Assembly: GCA_043803225.1 (NCBI GenBank)
Contig: JAZDKF010000026.1
Coordinates: 2,250-66,249, forward strand
Direction: 5' to 3'
Length of the DNA: 64,000 nucleotides
DNA from: Candidatus Beckwithbacteria bacterium
GTDB taxonomy: Bacteria > Patescibacteriota > Microgenomatia > UBA1400 > CG1-02-47-37
A program made the position numbers and the translations under genes. Below, piece after piece: positions 2,757 through 28,823 of this stretch. Under the pieces are notes generated by a model that was given only the letters and a program-made list of their open reading frames with translations, had not been told where the DNA came from and searched no databases. How positions within the stretch are numbered: position 1 is the first letter of the stretch; each line of letters begins with the position of its first letter.

Positions 2757-4757
2757 TTACTCCTTTAAACTCGTAATAACTTTTTTGGCAATAAATTCTG
2801 CACTTAATTTAAAGGCTTTCATTAATTCCCAAGATCCGCCGCTTTCCCCAAACTTATCCTCAACTCCGATCATTGCCATCTTTACCGGCTTGGATAAACA
2901 GGCTGTCATAATTACCCCGGCAACCAAATTACCCAAACCGCCTTTTTGGTGTTCTTCGGCGGTGACAATCAACTTGGTCTCTTGACCTGCTTTAATAATC
3001 GTCTTTTTATCTAAGGGTTTCAGTGTGTGTAAATTTATTACTCTGACTTTTATCTTAAACTCAGTTTCTAAAATCCAGGCCGCCCGCATTGCTTCGGCCA
3101 ATTCCGGTCCGCAGCTGATCAGAGTTACCTTTTCCTGCTCATTTTTATATTTAGACCCTAAAATTGTCTCAAACGCGTCAATAAAATTATTCTTAATTCC
3201 TCTAAACCTAATAACATTTGCCTGACCAAATACTAGAGGTGTTTTTTTGGTCGTTAAAATCGGCGTTGCTTCTCTGGCAAATCTGATATATTTTGGGCCC
3301 TTAACTTTAAACAGTAAATATTCTGTCAGTCTTTCTGTCTCAATTGAATCACACGGAACCGCTAAATTCATGTTCGGTAAAATTCCGACTACGGAAAACT
3401 CTTCTAAAGATTGGTGCGTCGCTCCGTCGGCACCGACCGAAACCCCGCCGTGCGCCCCGCCGAACATCACATTCAAATTGCCATAACAAATCGAAGTTCT
3501 CATCTGGTCAGCGTTTCTTTGCGAACAAAATACGCCATAAGTACCCAATACCGGCAATTTCCCTTCTCTGGCCAGTCCTCCGGCCACGGTAGTGGCGCTT
3601 TGTTCCGCAATTCCCATCGACAACCAGCGGTTTTTTCGGTCTTCAAATCCCTCATGAAATTTTGAAATCTGGATTGAATCAGAAATATCCAGACCCAAAC
3701 ACACTACTCGTTTATCGCCGCCTCGCTTCGCCAATGTTTTGCCAAAACCAAATCGGGTTGGTTCCATCTGCACTTTCATGGTTTCTCCATTGTTCCACCA
3801 ATAATCCCGTTTAAATTTCGGAACGCTTTTATTAATTAAAACCGTGGCCTTTTCCTGAAATTTTCTGGCTTTTTCTTTAAATTCAATCGGGTTTAACTCC
3901 TTATTAAGCTTTAATTCTTTCAGAGACTTTTCCAGTTCTTCATCATTTGGAGCCTTACCGTGCCACCCGGCCACATTTTCCATAAAGCTAACCCCTTTGC
4001 CTTTTATCGTTCTAAATACAATTGCCGCTGGTTTACCCTGAACTGCTTTTGCTTTTTCAAATGTGGTTAAAATCTCTTCCAGGTTATGGCCGTTAACCTT
4101 AAACACTTTAAATCCAAAACTAGTTAATTTTTCATTTAACCAGTCCAGTTTCATGACTGTTTCGGTATTGCCGTCAATCTGCAAATAATTTCTATCGATG
4201 CAAACAATTAAGTTATCTAAATTATAATGAGCCGCCTCCATCGCTGCTTCCCACATAGAACCTTCGGCCCACTCACCATCGCCGGTAATTGTATAAATTT
4301 TATGAGTTTGCTTGTTTAATTTAGCTGCTAAAGCCATTCCTACGGCTAAACTCAATCCTTGACCCAGTGATCCGGTGGAAACTTCCACACCCTTAACTTT
4401 TAACCAATGGGGATGACCTTGAAACTTAGAGCCAAATTTTCTAAGTAGTGCCGTCTCTTCAATCGGAAAGTATCCGGACATTCCTAAAGCGGTATACAAA
4501 GCCGGAGCCTTATGGCCGGCTGACCAAACCACTCTATCTCTATTTTTCCAATTAGGGTCTTTCGGATCGTGATGGAGCACAGACAAATATAAGGCTGCTG
4601 CAACATCCATCACTGACAATGATCCGCCGGAATGCCCGCTGCCGGCACAACTTATAGCTGTAAGACAATAACCCCTCATTCTGTTAGCTGTTTCCTTAAG
4701 TTTGCCTATCGAATACCGAACTCTTACCTTACCTGTCTTTGAATCTATGATTGCCAT
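2757..4757 (-). CDS. tkt: transketolase
   Basis: 666 aa. The N-terminal thiamine-diphosphate-binding motif GHSGGSLSVMDV is present, and the protein is full-length with the pyrimidine-binding and C-terminal domains. Confidence 0.9.
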   Translation of the reverse strand: MAIIDSKTGKVRVRYSIGKLKETANRMRGYCLTAISCAGSGHSGGSLSVMDVAAALYLSVLHHDPKDPNWKNRDRVVWSAGHKAPALYTALGMSGYFPIEETALLRKFGSKFQGHPHWLKVKGVEVSTGSLGQGLSLAVGMALAAKLNKQTHKIYTITGDGEWAEGSMWEAAMEAAHYNLDNLIVCIDRNYLQIDGNTETVMKLDWLNEKLTSFGFKVFKVNGHNLEEILTTFEKAKAVQGKPAAIVFRTIKGKGVSFMENVAGWHGKAPNDEELEKSLKELKLNKELNPIEFKEKARKFQEKATVLINKSVPKFKRDYWWNNGETMKVQMEPTRFGFGKTLAKRGGDKRVVCLGLDISDSIQISKFHEGFEDRKNRWLSMGIAEQSATTVAGGLAREGKLPVLGTYGVFCSQRNADQMRTSICYGNLNVMFGGAHGGVSVGADGATHQSLEEFSVVGILPNMNLAVPCDSIETERLTEYLLFKVKGPKYIRFAREATPILTTKKTPLVFGQANVIRFRGIKNNFIDAFETILGSKYKNEQEKVTLISCGPELAEAMRAAWILETEFKIKVRVINLHTLKPLDKKTIIKAGQETKLIVTAEEHQKGGLGNLVAGVIMTACLSKPVKMAMIGVEDKFGESGGSWELMKAFKLSAEFIAKKVITSLKE

Positions 4758-14707: not shown

Positions 14708-15274
14708 ATGACTACCAATAAAATGGATCCATTCCAAACTTCAAAAAAGAAAAAATCAGCGCCTAAGTACCAAAACTTTCTTGAGGCTTTTAAGGATATT
14801 GGAACGGCTAAAACTGCTTCCAATCAATCTTCCTCTGATGAATTCTTTAATTTTGAGGAGTTTTTAAATCAACAAGAGCAAAAAATTAGAAATCAGGAGC
14901 GTACCCGTTTTGAAGCTATTAGACGAGAAGAACAGGTAATTTTTTCCCGCGAACAAAACCAAGTAAAAACTCAAATTGAAACCATCCAGGTTCAAATTAA
15001 AGAACTCGTTAAAGAGCAAGTCGGTTTAATGGAAGAGATTGATAAAACTGCTTTTCAGGCTGTAGTTAATCCTGGGAAGTATCATCAAAATTTCTTTGAA
15101 CGCTTACTTCATTTAATTAAACTGGCGCGGAAAAAAGTGGTTGAATCGCGAACTTGGTTGCAGATGCATAATCACCGTAGTCAATGTAAGTCTGCTTACT
15201 GGCAAGGGGTTAAAAAAGGTGGTACCAGCTTTATGCTGTCATCCGACCGAACCGTGGCTACCCAATCCGGCTAG
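14708..15274 (+). CDS. hypothetical coiled-coil protein
   Basis: 188-aa ORF with charged, helical composition and no recognisable motif. Confidence 0.35.
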   Translation: MTTNKMDPFQTSKKKKSAPKYQNFLEAFKDIGTAKTASNQSSSDEFFNFEEFLNQQEQKIRNQERTRFEAIRREEQVIFSREQNQVKTQIETIQVQIKELVKEQVGLMEEIDKTAFQAVVNPGKYHQNFFERLLHLIKLARKKVVESRTWLQMHNHRSQCKSAYWQGVKKGGTSFMLSSDRTVATQSG

Positions 15275-23946: not shown

Positions 23947-24561
23947 ATGAACAAAGAACATAAATTGGATCTTCTTTTAGCTACCTATATTACCGCCATT
24001 GTTGCAGCTGAACTCTTAGGTAGCAAAATTTTTCAAGTCAGTTTTATAAAAGCCTCTGTCGGTATCTTTGTTTTGCCGATTACTTTTACTATCAATGACA
24101 TCGTTACTGAAGTATATGGGAAAAAAAGAGCCAGAAGTTTCATCAAAGCCGGCCTCTATGTTCTAATCGGCTTAGCTGGCTATACTTTAATTTCGATTAA
24201 ACTCCCTCCAGCTAACAGATTTTTACCCTTTCACTCTGCCTATATTGAAATTTTCTCCAAATCTTTACGTATTACCCTTGCCAGCATCACTGCTTTCTTT
24301 TTAAGTGAACGCTTAGACGTCTATATCTTTTCTAAAATCCGTCAGCGTCTCGGCAAAAAGAAACTTTGGTTAAGAAATAACCTCTCAAACTTTCTCGGCC
24401 AACTCTTTGACACGGTTGTATTTATGTTTCTCGCCTTTTACTCAATTGGCAGTTTTAACTTTATTCTGGCTCTCATTTGGCCTTACTGGCTGCTAAAGTG
24501 TACTATGTCAATCATTGAAACTCCGTTTACCTACTTAGGTGTTAAGTGGCTCAAAAAATGA
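23947..24561 (+). CDS. queuosine-precursor transporter (YhhQ/DUF165 family)
   Basis: Six predicted TM segments. The N-terminus SVGIFVLPITFTINDIVTEVYGKKRAR matches the YhhQ family. Confidence 0.65.
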   Translation: MNKEHKLDLLLATYITAIVAAELLGSKIFQVSFIKASVGIFVLPITFTINDIVTEVYGKKRARSFIKAGLYVLIGLAGYTLISIKLPPANRFLPFHSAYIEIFSKSLRITLASITAFFLSERLDVYIFSKIRQRLGKKKLWLRNNLSNFLGQLFDTVVFMFLAFYSIGSFNFILALIWPYWLLKCTMSIIETPFTYLGVKWLKK

Positions 24562-25304
24562 ACTTAAATTCAATAAAAACCTCGCTGGTTAAACCCAAAG
24601 ACGACCTATTCCTGCTTATTAAACGTTCGATTAAATCTATTCCGGAAAACTCAGTTCTGGCGATAACTTCAAAAATCTTTTCTTACTCCCAAAACCGCCT
24701 GGTAAAGAAAATTACCGCAGAAAAGAGCGAAAAACACAACCTGGTTAGGCAGGAAGCTGATTTCTATTTAGATCCTAGCCTGTCCCAATACGATACCATG
24801 TTAACCATAAAAAACAATATTTTAGCTGTCAATGCCGGTATTGATGAGTCAAACGCCGCTAATTTTTATTTGTTGTGGCCTAAAAACCTTCAATCAGCTA
24901 CCAATCAACTCTGGATCAAACTGCGTCGTTATTATCAGCTTAAAAATTTTGGTTTGATTATCACCGACAGTAAAACCACGCCTTTAAAATGGGGCGTTAC
25001 CGGCACCTGTATTGCCCATTGCGGCTTTGCCGCTCTAAATGACTATCGCGGCCGGCCTGACTTGTTTGGCCGCAAAATGAAAATGACTCAGGTTAATGTT
25101 GCCGAAGCCTTAGCCGTTGTTGCTGTTTATGAGATGGGGGAGACTAATCAATCAACCCCGCTTTGTCTGATACAAAGTATTCCCTTTATTAAATTTTCCT
25201 CTCAGCCGCCGACCAAAAAAGAACTGTTCTCTTTAAAAATTTCTCTTGAAGACGACGTTTACGCTCCGCTTTTAACATCAGTCAGCTGGAAAAATACTCG
25301 TTGA
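24546..25304 (+). CDS. CofE-like gamma-glutamyl ligase family protein (F420-0:gamma-glutamyl ligase / putative folate-metabolism ligase fold)
   Basis: Contains the NAGIDESN motif characteristic of CofE-family ligases. Confidence 0.5.
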   Translation: MAQKMNLNSIKTSLVKPKDDLFLLIKRSIKSIPENSVLAITSKIFSYSQNRLVKKITAEKSEKHNLVRQEADFYLDPSLSQYDTMLTIKNNILAVNAGIDESNAANFYLLWPKNLQSATNQLWIKLRRYYQLKNFGLIITDSKTTPLKWGVTGTCIAHCGFAALNDYRGRPDLFGRKMKMTQVNVAEALAVVAVYEMGETNQSTPLCLIQSIPFIKFSSQPPTKKELFSLKISLEDDVYAPLLTSVSWKNTR

Positions 25305-25329
25305 AAAATATCAAAACCTGTGGTATAAT
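25301..25329 (+). promoter_or_regulatory. sigma70-type promoter with extended -10
   Basis: TTGAAA at 25301-25306, a 17-nt spacer, then TGgTATAAT at 25321-25329. It drives the T-box leader. Confidence 0.6.
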
Positions 25330-25335
25330 CAGGCT

Positions 25336-25596
25336 TATTGAAAATTTAACAAAGCGTTAAAAGGAGAACTTTTACACTCCGTCAGCAGAACCGACAAAAT
25401 CGGTTACGGGAGTTCCCGTTACAGAACTAGCGTGTGTCACATTAGCAACCGAGCACGTCAACATGAAGAATTAATTCATTGGTTGACCCGCACTCTTGCG
25501 GGTTTTTATATGGATTAGTTGAATCAAGGTGGTACCGTCTTCTTCCTTGAAGACCCTTGAATGTTCCAATTATTTTGGGATATTCAAGGGTTTTTT
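25336..25596 (+). promoter_or_regulatory. T-box riboswitch leader (tRNA-sensing antiterminator/terminator)
   Basis: Conserved T-box sequence AAUCAAGGUGGUACCG at 25521-25536. The antiterminator is helix A1 UCAAGG(25524-29)/CCUUGA(25555-60), the canonical 7-nt bulge UGGUACC (25530-36), and helix A2 GUCUUC/GAAGAC. A mutually exclusive terminator CCCUUGAAU...AUUCAAGGG (25554-25589) is followed by UUUUUU. A stem III-like hairpin sits at 25488-25507. Confidence 0.8.
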
Positions 25597-25610
25597 ATTA
25601 ACAAATTATC

Positions 25611-25737
25611 AAACTGCCAAGGGTCGCCTTAGGCGACGACTGGTCACGCCGGGACCAATTTTATTAATTAAATTTTAATTTTATTCCGAGCGCTAAAATC
25701 ACCAGTCGGTCGAATTAATCCTCGACCTCTTGGCAGA
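25611..25737 (+). promoter_or_regulatory. unclassified structured 5'-leader element (nested helices) between the T-box terminator and the start codon
   Basis: Closing helix CUGCCAAG(25611-18)/CUUGGCAG(25730-37). Inside are hairpin GUCGCC-UUAG-GGCGAC, helix GACUGGU/ACCAGUC around an AU-rich loop, and hairpin GGUCGA-AUUAAUCC-UCGACC. The RBS AAGGA follows at about 25751. Confidence 0.35.
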
Positions 25738-25764
25738 AAATAATTTATTAATTAAGGAAAAAAT

Positions 25765-26697
25765 ATGACTTTACCTGAAACTCCAAATCAAGTTGGTGAA
25801 GAATTCGCTGCCGGATTAAGGGAAAGTAGCGGTTATGATCAAACTCAAATCCTGATTGAAACAGAAGGAATTACCTCTGAAGTTTTAAACCGAACCCCGC
25901 CGGTGGGATTAAATCTGCGTTTATTAGTTGAAATGCCCATCATGAACGAACTTAAGAAAGAGTTTAAGGAACGGCCAATTCTTGCGGCTATTTTAGGAAT
26001 TGCTATCCCTGACGGAGTTCCGGACTTTCAGCTCTTCTTAAAAACTGCTTTTAATAGTTGCTGGAGTAGTCTTTTTGTCCTGGATATCGATTCTGTTATC
26101 CTTGATGAAGTCAATAGACTGGAACTTCCTGGAGTTATTACTAGAGAAACTGATGCCCGTTTAACTCAAATAGAAACAGATACTTTAGATATAGTTCTTA
26201 TGGACCACCTGGGAAATTGTTGCCCTCCTGTAATTGATAGGCAAATTCAGCAAGAAGCCCATAGAATCCTCAGACCAGGAGGAATAGCTATCGTTAACAT
26301 CACAACATCCGAACTACTTAATCTATCACTGGGAAGAAAAAAACTTCCCTTTAGCCAAGTTAGAGATATCATGGGGAATGACGGAATAAAATCCCTGCAA
26401 ACAGAAATTTATGACTTAGCCCAGTTAAACAGAAAATTTAATACTAATTTTGATTTTATTTTGAGAGGACCTATTCTGGAAATTGAACAGGATTGTCCGG
26501 AGAGCGTGGTAATTTTTGGGGAAAATGAAATCGGTCATGGGGAATGGTTCCGACCGTTAAACGATCATCTGAAGCAATGGAAAACTACATGGGATTGGGA
26601 TTTTGATATCTTAGAAATTAAATCTAGGGAAGGGAATGATAGTCATAACCCGCCATTAAGATGTTTTCGTCATAATATTGTTTTAAGAAAAATATGA
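25765..26697 (+). CDS. hypothetical protein, possible SAM-dependent methyltransferase fold
   Basis: 310 aa. The motif ILRPGGIAIV resembles MTase motif post-II. First gene downstream of the T-box. Confidence 0.35.
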   Translation: MTLPETPNQVGEEFAAGLRESSGYDQTQILIETEGITSEVLNRTPPVGLNLRLLVEMPIMNELKKEFKERPILAAILGIAIPDGVPDFQLFLKTAFNSCWSSLFVLDIDSVILDEVNRLELPGVITRETDARLTQIETDTLDIVLMDHLGNCCPPVIDRQIQQEAHRILRPGGIAIVNITTSELLNLSLGRKKLPFSQVRDIMGNDGIKSLQTEIYDLAQLNRKFNTNFDFILRGPILEIEQDCPESVVIFGENEIGHGEWFRPLNDHLKQWKTTWDWDFDILEIKSREGNDSHNPPLRCFRHNIVLRKI

Positions 26698-27695
26698 TCA
26701 ATCTTCAACCTTTAATTACCCCAATAATTTTATCTACTACTATGGCTCAAAAAAATCCGGAGCAAGGTGGTTACGGCCGCGTAGATAACCCTACTAGATT
26801 AGCTCTCGAAAAAAAATTAGCTAAACTTGAAAAAGCCAGATTTGCTCTGGCATTTTCCTCAGGATCTGCCGCAATTACTAATATTTTAGCAATATTAAAA
26901 TCTGGAGACGAAATTATTTGCCACCAAGAAGTTTATGAAGGCACTTTAAGGCTCTTGACAAAGGTTTTTTCTAAATTTGGCGTAAAAGTTAAATTAACCG
27001 ACATTTGTAAATTAAAATCGGTTGGTAATAAAACAAGAATAATTTGGTTCGAAAATATTACTAATCCAACCCTACAAATTCTTGATGTTAAACAAATCTG
27101 CCGAAAACTTAAACAAAAAAAATTACTATTTGTCGTTGACAACACCTTTGCCACGCCCGTTTTCCAAAATCCACTCTTATCAGGTGCTGACATTGTTATT
27201 CATAGTTTAACTAAATTTATTAATGGCCATCATGATGTTACTGCCGGAGCCATCATGTTAAACAACAGAAAATTATTTGATCAACTAAAATTTTTACAAC
27301 ATACTGTCGGCGCTATACCATCTCCCTTTGATTGCTTCTTAATTCAAAGAAGTTTGGAAACCTTAATTATCAGAATGAAACAGCATCAAGCCAATGCTCA
27401 AAAAGTTACTGATTTTTTAAAAACCGACTCTCATATTTTCAGAATTTCTTTTCCTGGATTTTCCGGAGTTGTCTCCTTTTGGATAAAAGGCGGAAAGCAA
27501 AAAACCCTGAAATTTCTCGCCAGACTAAAACATATTAAAATCGCCCATAGTCTTGGTGGAACTGAATCAACCATTTTACATCCTGCCTCAATGATGAATC
27601 TATCTGTTCCCATGGAGGATAACTTAGTCCGGCTTTCTGTTGGTTTAGAAGATTCAAATCTAATCATTAATGACTTAAAGCTGGCTTTGCGCTAA
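26694..27695 (+). CDS. Cys/Met-metabolism PLP-dependent enzyme (cystathionine gamma-synthase/lyase family, short 333 aa)
   Basis: Contains the conserved PLP-lysine region HSLTKFINGHHDVTAGAI (S-x-T-K) and the FALAFSSGSAA region. Confidence 0.7.
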   Translation: MINLQPLITPIILSTTMAQKNPEQGGYGRVDNPTRLALEKKLAKLEKARFALAFSSGSAAITNILAILKSGDEIICHQEVYEGTLRLLTKVFSKFGVKVKLTDICKLKSVGNKTRIIWFENITNPTLQILDVKQICRKLKQKKLLFVVDNTFATPVFQNPLLSGADIVIHSLTKFINGHHDVTAGAIMLNNRKLFDQLKFLQHTVGAIPSPFDCFLIQRSLETLIIRMKQHQANAQKVTDFLKTDSHIFRISFPGFSGVVSFWIKGGKQKTLKFLARLKHIKIAHSLGGTESTILHPASMMNLSVPMEDNLVRLSVGLEDSNLIINDLKLALR

Positions 27696-27704
27696 AATAA
27701 ATTT

Positions 27705-28823
27705 ATGCTAACTATCGATGAAGTTTTAACTAGGGGAGTTGAGCAAGTATTGCCTAGCCGTGAAGGTTTAAAAAAACTGATGCAAATTAAAAAAATTCGG
27801 CTTTACCTGGGGATTGATCCCACGGCAACAAAATTACACCTGGGCCATACGGTTATGCTCCGCAAACTCCAGCAGTTTGCTGATTTAGGCCATGAAGCCA
27901 TTCTCTTATTCGGTACCGGAACAGTTTTAGTTGGAGATCCGTCTCAAAGAGACAAGGGCAGAAAATTAATTACTCAACCAGAAATTGACGACAATATAAA
28001 AACCTGGAAACAACAAGTTGAACCGATTATTGATTTTAAGAAAGTTAAAATTAAATATAACGGCGATTGGCTTTTGAAACTGGGACTAAAAGAAATAATT
28101 CAAATTGCTTCCAAAGTTTCTGCCATTCAGTTATTTAAACGAGATATGTTTCAAAAACGCTTAAAGCTCGGAGATACTGTCTGGTTTCATGAAACCCTAT
28201 ATCCGCTTTTGCAAGGTTATGACTCAGTTGCTATGAATGTTGATCTGGAACTGGGCGGAACTGATCAAACTTTCAATATGTTAATCGGCCGGGAACTGCA
28301 AGCCAAAATAAATCACCATGAAAAATTCGTTTTAACCGGCAAAATGATTATGGGAACAGACGGCCAGCAAATGAGTAAAACTTCCAACAACTGTATCTGG
28401 CTTACTGATACTGCAAAGGATATGTTTGGAAAACTAATGTCTATTCGTGACGAACTTATACCGAATTATTGGGAATTTTTTACTGATAAATCAATGCCAA
28501 TAGGGAATCCGTTAACAGTTAAAAAACAACTGGCTCTGGAAATTACCAGCCAGTACCATGGTGATTCGGGCGCCCTTGCCGCTCAAATTAACTTTGAAAC
28601 CACTTTTCAAAAAAAAGCACCGGAATTTAAGCAAACTGTCAAGCAGGGGAGTAATCTAGTTGAAACCATCGCCAAGATCGCCGGCAGCAACTCTGAAGCT
28701 AAAAGATTAATTCGTGATGGAGCAGTAGACATCAACAACATAACTGTAAAAGATATTAACGCTGGAACGGCGGTAGGAGATAAAATAAAAATCGGGAAAA
28801 AAGTTTTCAGAACGATTATATGA
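27705..28823 (+). CDS. tyrS: tyrosine--tRNA ligase (with C-terminal S4-like domain)
   Basis: Class I HIGH motif (GIDPTATKLHLGH), KMSKS-like QQMSKTS, and a C-terminal S4 domain. Confidence 0.8.
   Translation: MLTIDEVLTRGVEQVLPSREGLKKLMQIKKIRLYLGIDPTATKLHLGHTVMLRKLQQFADLGHEAILLFGTGTVLVGDPSQRDKGRKLITQPEIDDNIKTWKQQVEPIIDFKKVKIKYNGDWLLKLGLKEIIQIASKVSAIQLFKRDMFQKRLKLGDTVWFHETLYPLLQGYDSVAMNVDLELGGTDQTFNMLIGRELQAKINHHEKFVLTGKMIMGTDGQQMSKTSNNCIWLTDTAKDMFGKLMSIRDELIPNYWEFFTDKSMPIGNPLTVKKQLALEITSQYHGDSGALAAQINFETTFQKKAPEFKQTVKQGSNLVETIAKIAGSNSEAKRLIRDGAVDINNITVKDINAGTAVGDKIKIGKKVFRTII

Follow-up and report, generated by a model that had tools for sequence, protein, structure and literature searches.

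The closest described relatives of the element considered here are the class I T-boxes (RF00230), for which Bacillus subtilis tyrS is the prototype, together with the ultrashort-Stem-I T-boxes of actinobacterial ileS genes and the glyQS-type T-boxes. Transcriptional T-boxes are held to need a long Stem I platform for fast tRNA capture, and short Stem I variants to need the Stem II S-turn (PMC7583486). Native gene regulation in the Candidate Phyla Radiation (CPR) has been called virtually unknown in a 2024 perspective (PMC11665869). We analysed a 64,000-nucleotide stretch of DNA, hereafter the window, from a Candidatus Beckwithbacteria bacterium, an ultrasmall member of the CPR, and we put at roughly 85% the probability that its positions 25301-25596 are a tyrosine-specific T-box. 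The element would act by transcription attenuation and would control a methyltransferase-like (MT-like) gene, a gene for a pyridoxal phosphate (PLP)-dependent enzyme, tyrS and possibly recG. A limited search found no literature linking T-boxes with the CPR or Patescibacteria, which is not proof of novelty.

The window's own leader is called W, and labels of the form L001-L068 denote related loci. In W, the promoter, the T-box core and the alternative 3' structures are arranged as follows.

25301..25329, + strand: sigma-70-type promoter with -35 box TTGAAA (25301-25306), 17-nt spacer and extended -10 element TGgTATAAT (25321-25329); 11 of 12 consensus positions agree and the TG is present.
25522-25537, + strand: T-box sequence AAUCAAGGUGGUACCG, an exact match to the core.
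25522..25560, + strand: T-box plus antiterminator, with helix A1 (UCAAGG 25524-25529 / CCUUGA 25555-25560) and helix A2 (GUCUUC 25537-25542 / GAAGAC 25549-25554).
25552..25596, + strand: intrinsic terminator with an extended stem of ~18-20 bp (25552-25592) and U6 (25591-25596); -27.7 kcal/mol, z = -8.9 for the fold of 25550-25598.

The 12-mer AAGGTGGTACCG, allowing one mismatch or fewer, has a chance expectation of 0.15 per window. Between A1 and A2 lies the 7-nt bulge UGGUACC (25530-25536), the first four residues of which (UGGU, 25530-25533) are complementary to the A73-CCA end of tRNA. The antiterminator is the minimum-free-energy fold of the isolated 40-mer 25521-25560 (-12.7 kcal/mol). 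The 5' arm of the terminator consists of the 3' strands of A2 and A1 (25552-25560, including CCUUGA), which makes the two structures mutually exclusive, and the terminator is much the stronger of the pair, the usual energy ordering. An earlier note on this DNA, made from the letters and open reading frames (ORFs) alone, had described the promoter, the T-box motif, the bulge, the A1/A2 antiterminator and the overlapping terminator; we recover each of them within 1-2 nt, and its reading as a T-box transcription attenuator is borne out by the canonical folds and by the match to RF00230. Two further core-like sequences were discarded. One at 15216, with one mismatch, lies inside a 188-aa ORF (14708-15274) and lacks the surrounding T-box structure, and in L001 another exact copy of the core (position 1607) falls within an 873-aa ORF of the opposite strand.

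With permissive filters, RF00230 aligns end to end (model positions 1-219) with 25348-25551 at 32.8 bits (E = 1.5e-5 in a local scan, 0.0016 when the whole window is searched). The permissive scan of the 64 kb gives no other non-tRNA Rfam match and no other T-box match. At the curated threshold, which is a gathering score of 93 bits for RF00230, the whole window returns nine tRNAs only. The T-box sequence and the UGGUACC bulge segment are aligned at high posterior probability, and 75 distal Stem I model positions are reduced to 11 nt in W, in line with the unusually short Stem I reported in the earlier note. The low score arises because the distal Stem I (~75 positions) and parts of Stem II are deleted. 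Long-form orthologous leaders of the same operon pass 93 bits (L014 101.2, L004 94.7, L010 94.1 and L041 102.8), and L001 scores 87.5 and L021 46.4 bits. Failure to reach the threshold, which the earlier note had named as refuting a T-box, does apply to W taken literally, but it is not decisive, since the deficit stems from these deletions and the long-form orthologs pass. By its discriminator, specifier, pseudoknot and orthology the predicted element is a genuine T-box; it lacks the platform and the S-turn and scores below the gathering cutoff. The curated threshold systematically misses the short-form subclass (32.8 and 46.4 bits), and T-box censuses would therefore undercount short forms.

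The 5' domain of W is markedly reduced. Its elements, and Stem III behind them, are these.

25354..25386, + strand: truncated Stem I, with GC 25354-25355 / GC 25385-25386, kink-turn (K-turn) strands 25356-25362 and 25381-25384, and helix GGAG 25363-25366 / CUCC 25377-25380 (RF00230 alignment and six-leader comparison).
25373..25376, + strand: specifier UAC (Tyr) 25373-25375 and the purine A25376 behind it, the last four residues of the Stem I loop.
25389..25405, + strand: reduced Stem II, a 6-bp hairpin AACCGA/UCGGUU with loop CAAAA (25395-25399), without the GAA/AGUA S-turn.
25406..25428, + strand: Stem IIA/B pseudoknot (RF00230 alignment), with IIA ACGGG 25406-25410 / CCCGU 25415-25419 and IIB AGUU 25411-25414 (in the IIA loop) / AACU 25425-25428.
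25431..25457, + strand: clade-specific linker hairpin CGUG-UGUCAC...CCGAG-CACG (covariation).
25469..25520, + strand: Stem III, outer helix 25469-25479 / 25510-25520 (folding).

The terminal loop of Stem I has 10 nt (AACUUUUACA, 25367-25376) and is closed by a 4-bp helix. An F-box-like sequence, CCCGUUACAG at 25415-25424, lies within the pseudoknot. The elbow-binding platform (long Stem I, AG bulge and distal loop) is absent from W, L020, L021, L067, L028 and L060; in long-form orthologs the platform sequences AGAGA...GGUUGGUGCAAG are present. Likewise, the Stem II S-turn, an optional module of the T-box family, is missing from W and present in the long-form orthologs. L067, L028 and L060 have a canonical K-turn (GA ... 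GGA) and L021 a partial one; in W (GUUAAAA / GUCA) and L020 it is degenerate. The linker hairpin, which RF00230 treats as an insertion, is found in long-form leaders too. The earlier note had likened the hairpin 25411-25428 to an ultrashort Stem I; the pairing is real and represents helix IIB, which belongs to the pseudoknot and encloses the F-box CCGUUA.

For comparison, 68 related loci were assembled, 19 from genomes, 41 from metagenomes and 8 by exact protein look-up. The helices of the 5' domain were parsed explicitly; a MAFFT alignment displaced the Stem I columns. Six full-length leaders (W, L020, L021, L067, L028 and L060) share the reduced architecture and form a conserved subclass within the Microgenomates, with first-gene proteins that are ~80% (L020 and L021), 57% (L067), 48% (L028) and 38% (L060) identical to that of W. 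Stem I is a helix of 4-5 bp in all six, GGAG/CUCC covarying with AGAG/CUCU, and closes a loop AAyUyUUACA whose ..UUACA end is invariant. All four variable pairs of Stem II are compensated and its CAAAA loop is invariant. Helix IIB covaries as AGUU/AACU, UGCG/CGCA, AAUU/AAUU and UACG/CGUU, with IIA being ACGGG/CCCGU. The linker-hairpin stem does so as CGUG/CACG, UGCG/CGCA and ACCAU/AUGGU, and its UGUCAC and closing GAG are kept (CCGAG in W, ACAGAG elsewhere). Promoter equivalents stand at the same spacing to the T-box in L020, L021, L067, L028 and L060. Across a wider set of 32 leaders (29 distinct sequences), A1 and the bulge UGGUA(C/U/A)C are kept, A2 covaries freely and the core is identical or near-identical; the loss of bulge or antiterminator in orthologs, which the earlier note had named as a refutation, does not occur in them.

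Conservation of the leader exceeds that of the gene beside it. Comparing W with L067, L028 or L060 gives an identity of 74-82% for the 5' domain and of 81-83% for the discriminator, and in the same pairs the adjacent gene is 38-47% identical at third codon positions and 62-70% at positions 1+2. Judged from these identities, the reduced leader is under strong purifying selection and is more conserved than the coding sequence alongside. A crude neighbour-joining tree of the first-gene proteins groups the subclade of W with L067 and places the long-form L066 as sister, which suggests that the Stem I truncation is derived within the clade. In L058, Stem I has been shortened independently (AGGAG-AUAUACC-CUCCU). 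We also note that L028 (2780-3125) and L060 (60-392), both from metagenome Ga0114923, have a near-identical promoter and T-box leader, but the proteins of their first genes differ right from the start codon, which points to recombination where leader and gene meet or to a pair of paralogous operons.

Several observations weigh against a functional tyrosine T-box. Platform and S-turn are both missing, and W and L020 have a degenerate K-turn, even though a transcriptional T-box is held to require the platform for fast capture of tRNA (PMC7583486). The score of W falls short of the gathering cutoff. The UAC:GUA duplex is weak, with a single G-C pair. The host's own tRNA-Tyr is absent from the tRNA calls in the window. 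Finally, a terminator-like hairpin within Stem III could give some constitutive termination. The lost modules and the low RF00230 score would also fit a decaying, non-responsive T-box relic, in which the terminator is constitutive and partly leaky, or is bypassed. We regard such a relic as unlikely. The reduced architecture persists in six leaders, over some pairs of which the neighbouring gene has dropped to 43-58% amino-acid identity, and in those pairs the leader has changed less than codon positions 1+2. Compensatory changes are seen in every helix that is left, no variation occurs in the specifier loop, the CAAAA loop or the UGGUACC bulge, and promoter and terminator are intact. A relic would not retain specifier and bulge.

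The hairpin inside Stem III is GC-rich (25486-25503) and is followed by U5 (25503-25507; -12.6 kcal/mol, z = -5.5). Of 29 related T-box leaders, 25 have such a hairpin with a U-run (U5-U7), an intrinsic-terminator look-alike, in most cases 12-22 nt ahead of the core. Polymerase may make a programmed pause there, or the hairpin may be a first point of termination.

As read from the leaders and their genomic context, the specificity of the T-box is tyrosine. UAC occupies the RF00230 specifier columns of full-length orthologs (GAAAUAC, followed by C, U or G) and is invariant across all T-box leaders inspected, long and short. The earlier note had listed three UAC-A triplets as candidate specifiers. 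The first of them is the specifier, at 25373-25376 and not at 25372; the one placed at 25403 is UAC-G at 25405-25408, and the triplets at 25405 and 25420 are discarded as parts of the Stem II/IIA junction and of the F-box. Wherever a bacterial-type tyrS is accompanied by available upstream sequence, a T-box is found (26/26 loci).

In relatives of W, a gene for the presumed ligand is present as well. In 11 loci a tRNA-Tyr(GUA) with discriminator A73 stands between the T-box terminator and the first gene (ARAGORN; Rfam where searched), so that its anticodon is complementary to the UAC specifier and its A73-CCA end to the UGGU of the bulge. Ten of these tRNA-Tyr genes have the following coordinates within their loci.

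L002 3865-3953; L004 3877-3963; L010 3843-3931; L024 3384-3473; L026 1010-1096: tRNA-Tyr genes.
L030 3374-3462; L056 594-679; L059 1162-1247; L050 3339-3426; L055 3336-3422: tRNA-Tyr genes.

In compact slots the tRNA begins ~4-13 nt past the U-run, which leaves no space for a separate promoter; a few loci have longer inserts. The T-box of these relatives appears to control transcription of the gene for its own ligand. We found no literature on a tRNA gene inside a T-box leader in a limited search, which again is not proof of novelty.

A second line of evidence for tyrosine comes from sister loci with a different synthetase. Sixteen loci carry an archaeal/eukaryal-type tyrosyl-tRNA synthetase (TyrRS) as third gene (NF006330, 365-381 bits against a cutoff of 220). 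In 15 of the 16, one or two short peptides with runs of Tyr are encoded in the leader, and an intrinsic terminator stands behind each of them. MNKQFLTRQVSYYYHQLLYGGGAV and MKPVASTYYYPHALLRD are examples; the consensus is ..Q.SYYYxQLLYGG.., also ..TYYYP.., and the expected competing 2:3 and 3:4 pairings were found.

L003 3574-3960; L009 3716-3950; L012 3424-3990; L013 3610-3940; L042; L018; L051-L053; and others: leader-peptide loci.

In L058 and in the L038/L041/L049 group, a T-box and a Tyr leader peptide follow one another in series. In the window there is no ATG between 25597 and 25764. Since either a T-box or Tyr leader peptides precede it, the operon would be tyrosine-regulated throughout the clade by two unrelated attenuation mechanisms.

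These data also bear on other specificities. A specifier displaced by one base would read ACN, a Thr codon in every leader, because the base after UAC varies (A, C, U or G): ACA at 25374-25376 in W, and ACC, ACU or ACG in long-form relatives. Such a reading would call for a tRNA-Thr with A73, to match the UGGU bulge. The operon contains no threonine-related gene, though, the RF00230 specifier columns hold UAC and not ACN, the embedded tRNA is Tyr(GUA), the sister loci are regulated by Tyr-codon leader peptides, and a free wobble position in the specifier would be unusual. We consider a threonine sensor very improbable. Even less credible is a sensor of tRNA-Met with the AUG at 25463-25465 as specifier. 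tRNA-Met likewise has discriminator A73, compatible with the UGGU bulge, and the operon includes a PLP enzyme of Cys/Met metabolism, on which grounds the earlier note had held Tyr and Met both plausible. The AUG lies outside Stem I, behind the linker hairpin and in the purine-rich sequence that flanks Stem III on its 5' side, and it is not conserved (AAU or other bases in L067, L028, L060, L021 and L020), whereas tyrS, the embedded tRNA-Tyr and the Tyr leader peptides all indicate tyrosine. Of the two options in the earlier note, tyrosine is supported by the orthologs, tRNA-Tyr and tyrS, and methionine falls away; the question is resolved in favour of tyrosine.

From the anatomy of W, its conservation, covariation and selection, and the tyrosine context, we infer tRNA binding and read-through in the following manner. 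Transcription would start a few nucleotides past the -10 element (25324-25329). By default the strong terminator (25552-25596) would form and the transcript would end. When uncharged tRNA-Tyr(GUA) accumulates, its anticodon would pair with UAC 25373-25375 in the truncated Stem I loop and its free 3' end (A73-C-C-A) with UGGU 25530-25533. The weaker antiterminator (25524-25560) would be stabilised, read-through into the downstream RNA and genes would follow, and TyrRS would rise; charged tRNA-Tyr would be unable to stabilise the antiterminator. The contacts lost with platform and S-turn may be compensated by the invariant CAAAA loop of Stem II, by the linker hairpin or by both, and a pause at the Stem III hairpin may allow the tRNA time for binding. 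Translational control by sequestration of the Shine-Dalgarno sequence, the mode of the ultrashort Stem I variants described to date (PMC7583486), deserves hardly any credence here, as the competing helix is a stem of ~18-20 bp with U6 lying ~160 nt upstream of the Shine-Dalgarno sequence at 25754-25758, which is unpaired in the fold of the downstream leader.

The slot behind the terminator varies among members of the clade. Apart from tRNA-Tyr, it contains degenerate tRNA-like elements (5 loci), a Tyr leader peptide (4 loci) or no identified element (13 loci).

L001 3874-3962; L005/L006/L031 (~3895-3965 in L005); L017 (~3823-3915): degenerate tRNA-like elements.

The degenerate elements keep the acceptor stem (GCUGAGG/CCUCAGC-A-CC) and the GGUUCGAAUCC T-arm, with a remodelled anticodon arm: L005 has a tetraloop, and L001 has the loop CGGUUAG, called 'Asn GUU' despite its class II body. 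In W the read-through leader contains a different structure, a three- or four-way junction that we term the junction RNA.

25614..25736, + strand: junction RNA (fold z = -5.9), with P1 25614-25621 / 25729-25736, P2 hairpin 25622-25637 and P3a 25638-25644 / 25701-25707.
Junction RNA, continued, + strand: P3b 25647-25654 / 25684-25692, with conserved GUCACGC and GCG.AAA flanks, and P4 hairpin 25708-25727.

Homologs are found at L020 3860-3972, L021 1595-1708, L064 122-236, L063 1-97 and L065 1-112. In their alignment 81% of cells are paired (25-47% with slid partners), 8 pairs are changed on both sides (1-2 in slid controls), and 0 of 500 shuffles reach the covariation score. P2 is confined to W and possibly L065. 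Several identities were considered and rejected. No Rfam family matches consistently over the junction RNA at E < 5 in four homologs. As a tRNA it is negative with ARAGORN and RF00005 and has no GGUUCGAAUCC-type T-loop, being tRNA-like only in its four-helix topology and position. Within the window and the fetched loci its core is confined to this leader, which speaks against a mobile element or a repeat. It is not followed by a terminator and leaves the Shine-Dalgarno sequence free, so a riboswitch with an obvious expression platform was also dismissed. Descent from tRNA-Tyr has no sequence support, and the slot is empty in the nearest outgroups L067 and L066. The junction RNA might serve as a processing signal, as a stability element, as a site for protein binding or as a second sensor. 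In L063 (122-367) and L064 (228-488), an extra ORF of 81-86 aa, without a Pfam match, lies between the junction RNA and the MT-like gene; the window does not have it.

More tentatively, these features can be drawn into a single scheme, which taken as a whole we think doubtful. W would be a minimal transcriptional T-box with a 4-bp Stem I, a 6-bp Stem II and only IIA/B, its kinetics rescued by the linker hairpin and the Stem III hairpin. It would be part of a tyrosine regulon spanning the CPR, whose ancestral T-box drove the gene of its own ligand, the tRNA-Tyr within the leader. The junction RNA would have been remodelled from tRNA-Tyr or have replaced it, and would serve as a processing signal or second checkpoint for a tyrosine-linked pair of MT-fold and PLP proteins.

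The operon behind the leader consists of the following genes.

25765..26697, + strand: first regulated gene, 310 aa, class-I S-adenosylmethionine (SAM)-methyltransferase fold (AlphaFold, Foldseek); Shine-Dalgarno sequence AAGGA 25754-25758.
26694..27695, + strand: second regulated gene, PLP-dependent enzyme of Cys/Met metabolism, 333 aa (PF01053, 339 bits).
27705..28823, + strand: tyrS, bacterial-type tyrosyl-tRNA synthetase, 372 aa (TIGR00234, 289.9 bits against a cutoff of 113.8; PF00579).

This is the gene order given in the earlier note, now supported by the SAM-methyltransferase fold, PF01053 and TIGR00234. recG follows tyrS, and no terminator was detected between the two. The 310-aa protein of W has no Pfam match. 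Its AlphaFold model, built with 31 homologs, has a predicted local distance difference test score (pLDDT) of 91.5, and Foldseek retrieves METTL6 and other SAM methyltransferases at E ~1e-10. All of its 72 homologs derive from metagenomes or from Patescibacteria-type metagenome-assembled genomes (MAGs), and an NCBI protein of a Ca. Beckwithbacteria MAG (Patescibacteria group > Microgenomates group) matches it at 100% identity, in agreement with the CPR-like genome suspected in the earlier note. The PLP enzyme falls below every NCBIfam equivalog cutoff, and wherever a locus has enough sequence, its gene follows that for the MT-like protein. In 62 loci, the MT-fold protein has the invariant motifs DHxGNCCPP, GHGEWFR and DSHxPPLxCxRH. 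The pair is always adjacent in these loci and always behind a tyrosine-specific attenuator, even where tyrS is not found within 3.5 kb (L041 and L049). Upstream of the T-box promoter (23947-25304) lie genes for a Vut_1/YhhQ-type queuosine-precursor transporter and an F420-0:gamma-glutamyl-ligase-like protein, and the second of these genes ends in a stop codon that overlaps the -35 box. In many bacteria tRNA-Tyr carries the queuosine modification. The position of the transporter gene next to a Tyr T-box may be meaningful or may not.

The locus extends T-box regulation to the CPR. A reduced form that is conserved and selected contradicts the rule on the Stem I platform and the S-turn (PMC7583486), and offers a natural minimal scaffold for asking how little RNA suffices to read tRNA identity and charge during transcription. 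With three tyrosine-sensing layouts in one operon family (T-box, Tyr leader peptide, or both in series), it is also a system for the study of attenuator exchange. The tRNA-Tyr behind the T-box terminator suggests joint regulation of tRNA and synthetase levels. The operon suggests a tyrosine-linked function for the MT-fold/PLP pair, a functional lead for two uncharacterised CPR proteins.

Set against the described systems, W shares with class I T-boxes, B. subtilis tyrS being their prototype, the T-box core, the 7-nt UGGNACC bulge and the mutually exclusive antiterminator and terminator. The IIA/B pseudoknot with F-box, Stem III, the UAC specifier, the tyrS target and a sigma-70-type promoter directly upstream are held in common too. 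It differs from this class in the missing distal Stem I (AG bulge and distal loop) and S-turn, the degenerate K-turn, the extra conserved linker hairpin, the terminator-like hairpin in Stem III, and a host from the CPR rather than the Firmicutes. As in the actinobacterial ileS T-boxes (Mycobacterium tuberculosis, Nocardia farcinica; PMC7583486), the specifier sits in an effectively terminal loop, there is no elbow platform and the IIA/B pseudoknot is present. Those elements are translational, however, with a K-turn and a long Stem II bearing an S-turn, whereas in W there is a terminator, and Stem II is a 6-bp hairpin capped by CAAAA. Stem I would have been shortened independently of the actinobacterial one, because long-Stem-I orthologs occur in the same CPR operon family. 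glyQS-type T-boxes, which have neither a Stem II domain nor an S-turn, likewise work transcriptionally with a reduced middle domain, but they keep the full Stem I platform and a strong GGC:GCC duplex where W has no platform and a weak UAC:GUA duplex. In E. coli, pheST is an aminoacyl-tRNA synthetase operon under leader-peptide attenuation. The sister loci, and not W, resemble it in their cognate-codon-rich short ORFs, alternative hairpins and terminator; they differ in that the amino acid is Tyr and that some loci combine the leader peptide with a T-box in series.

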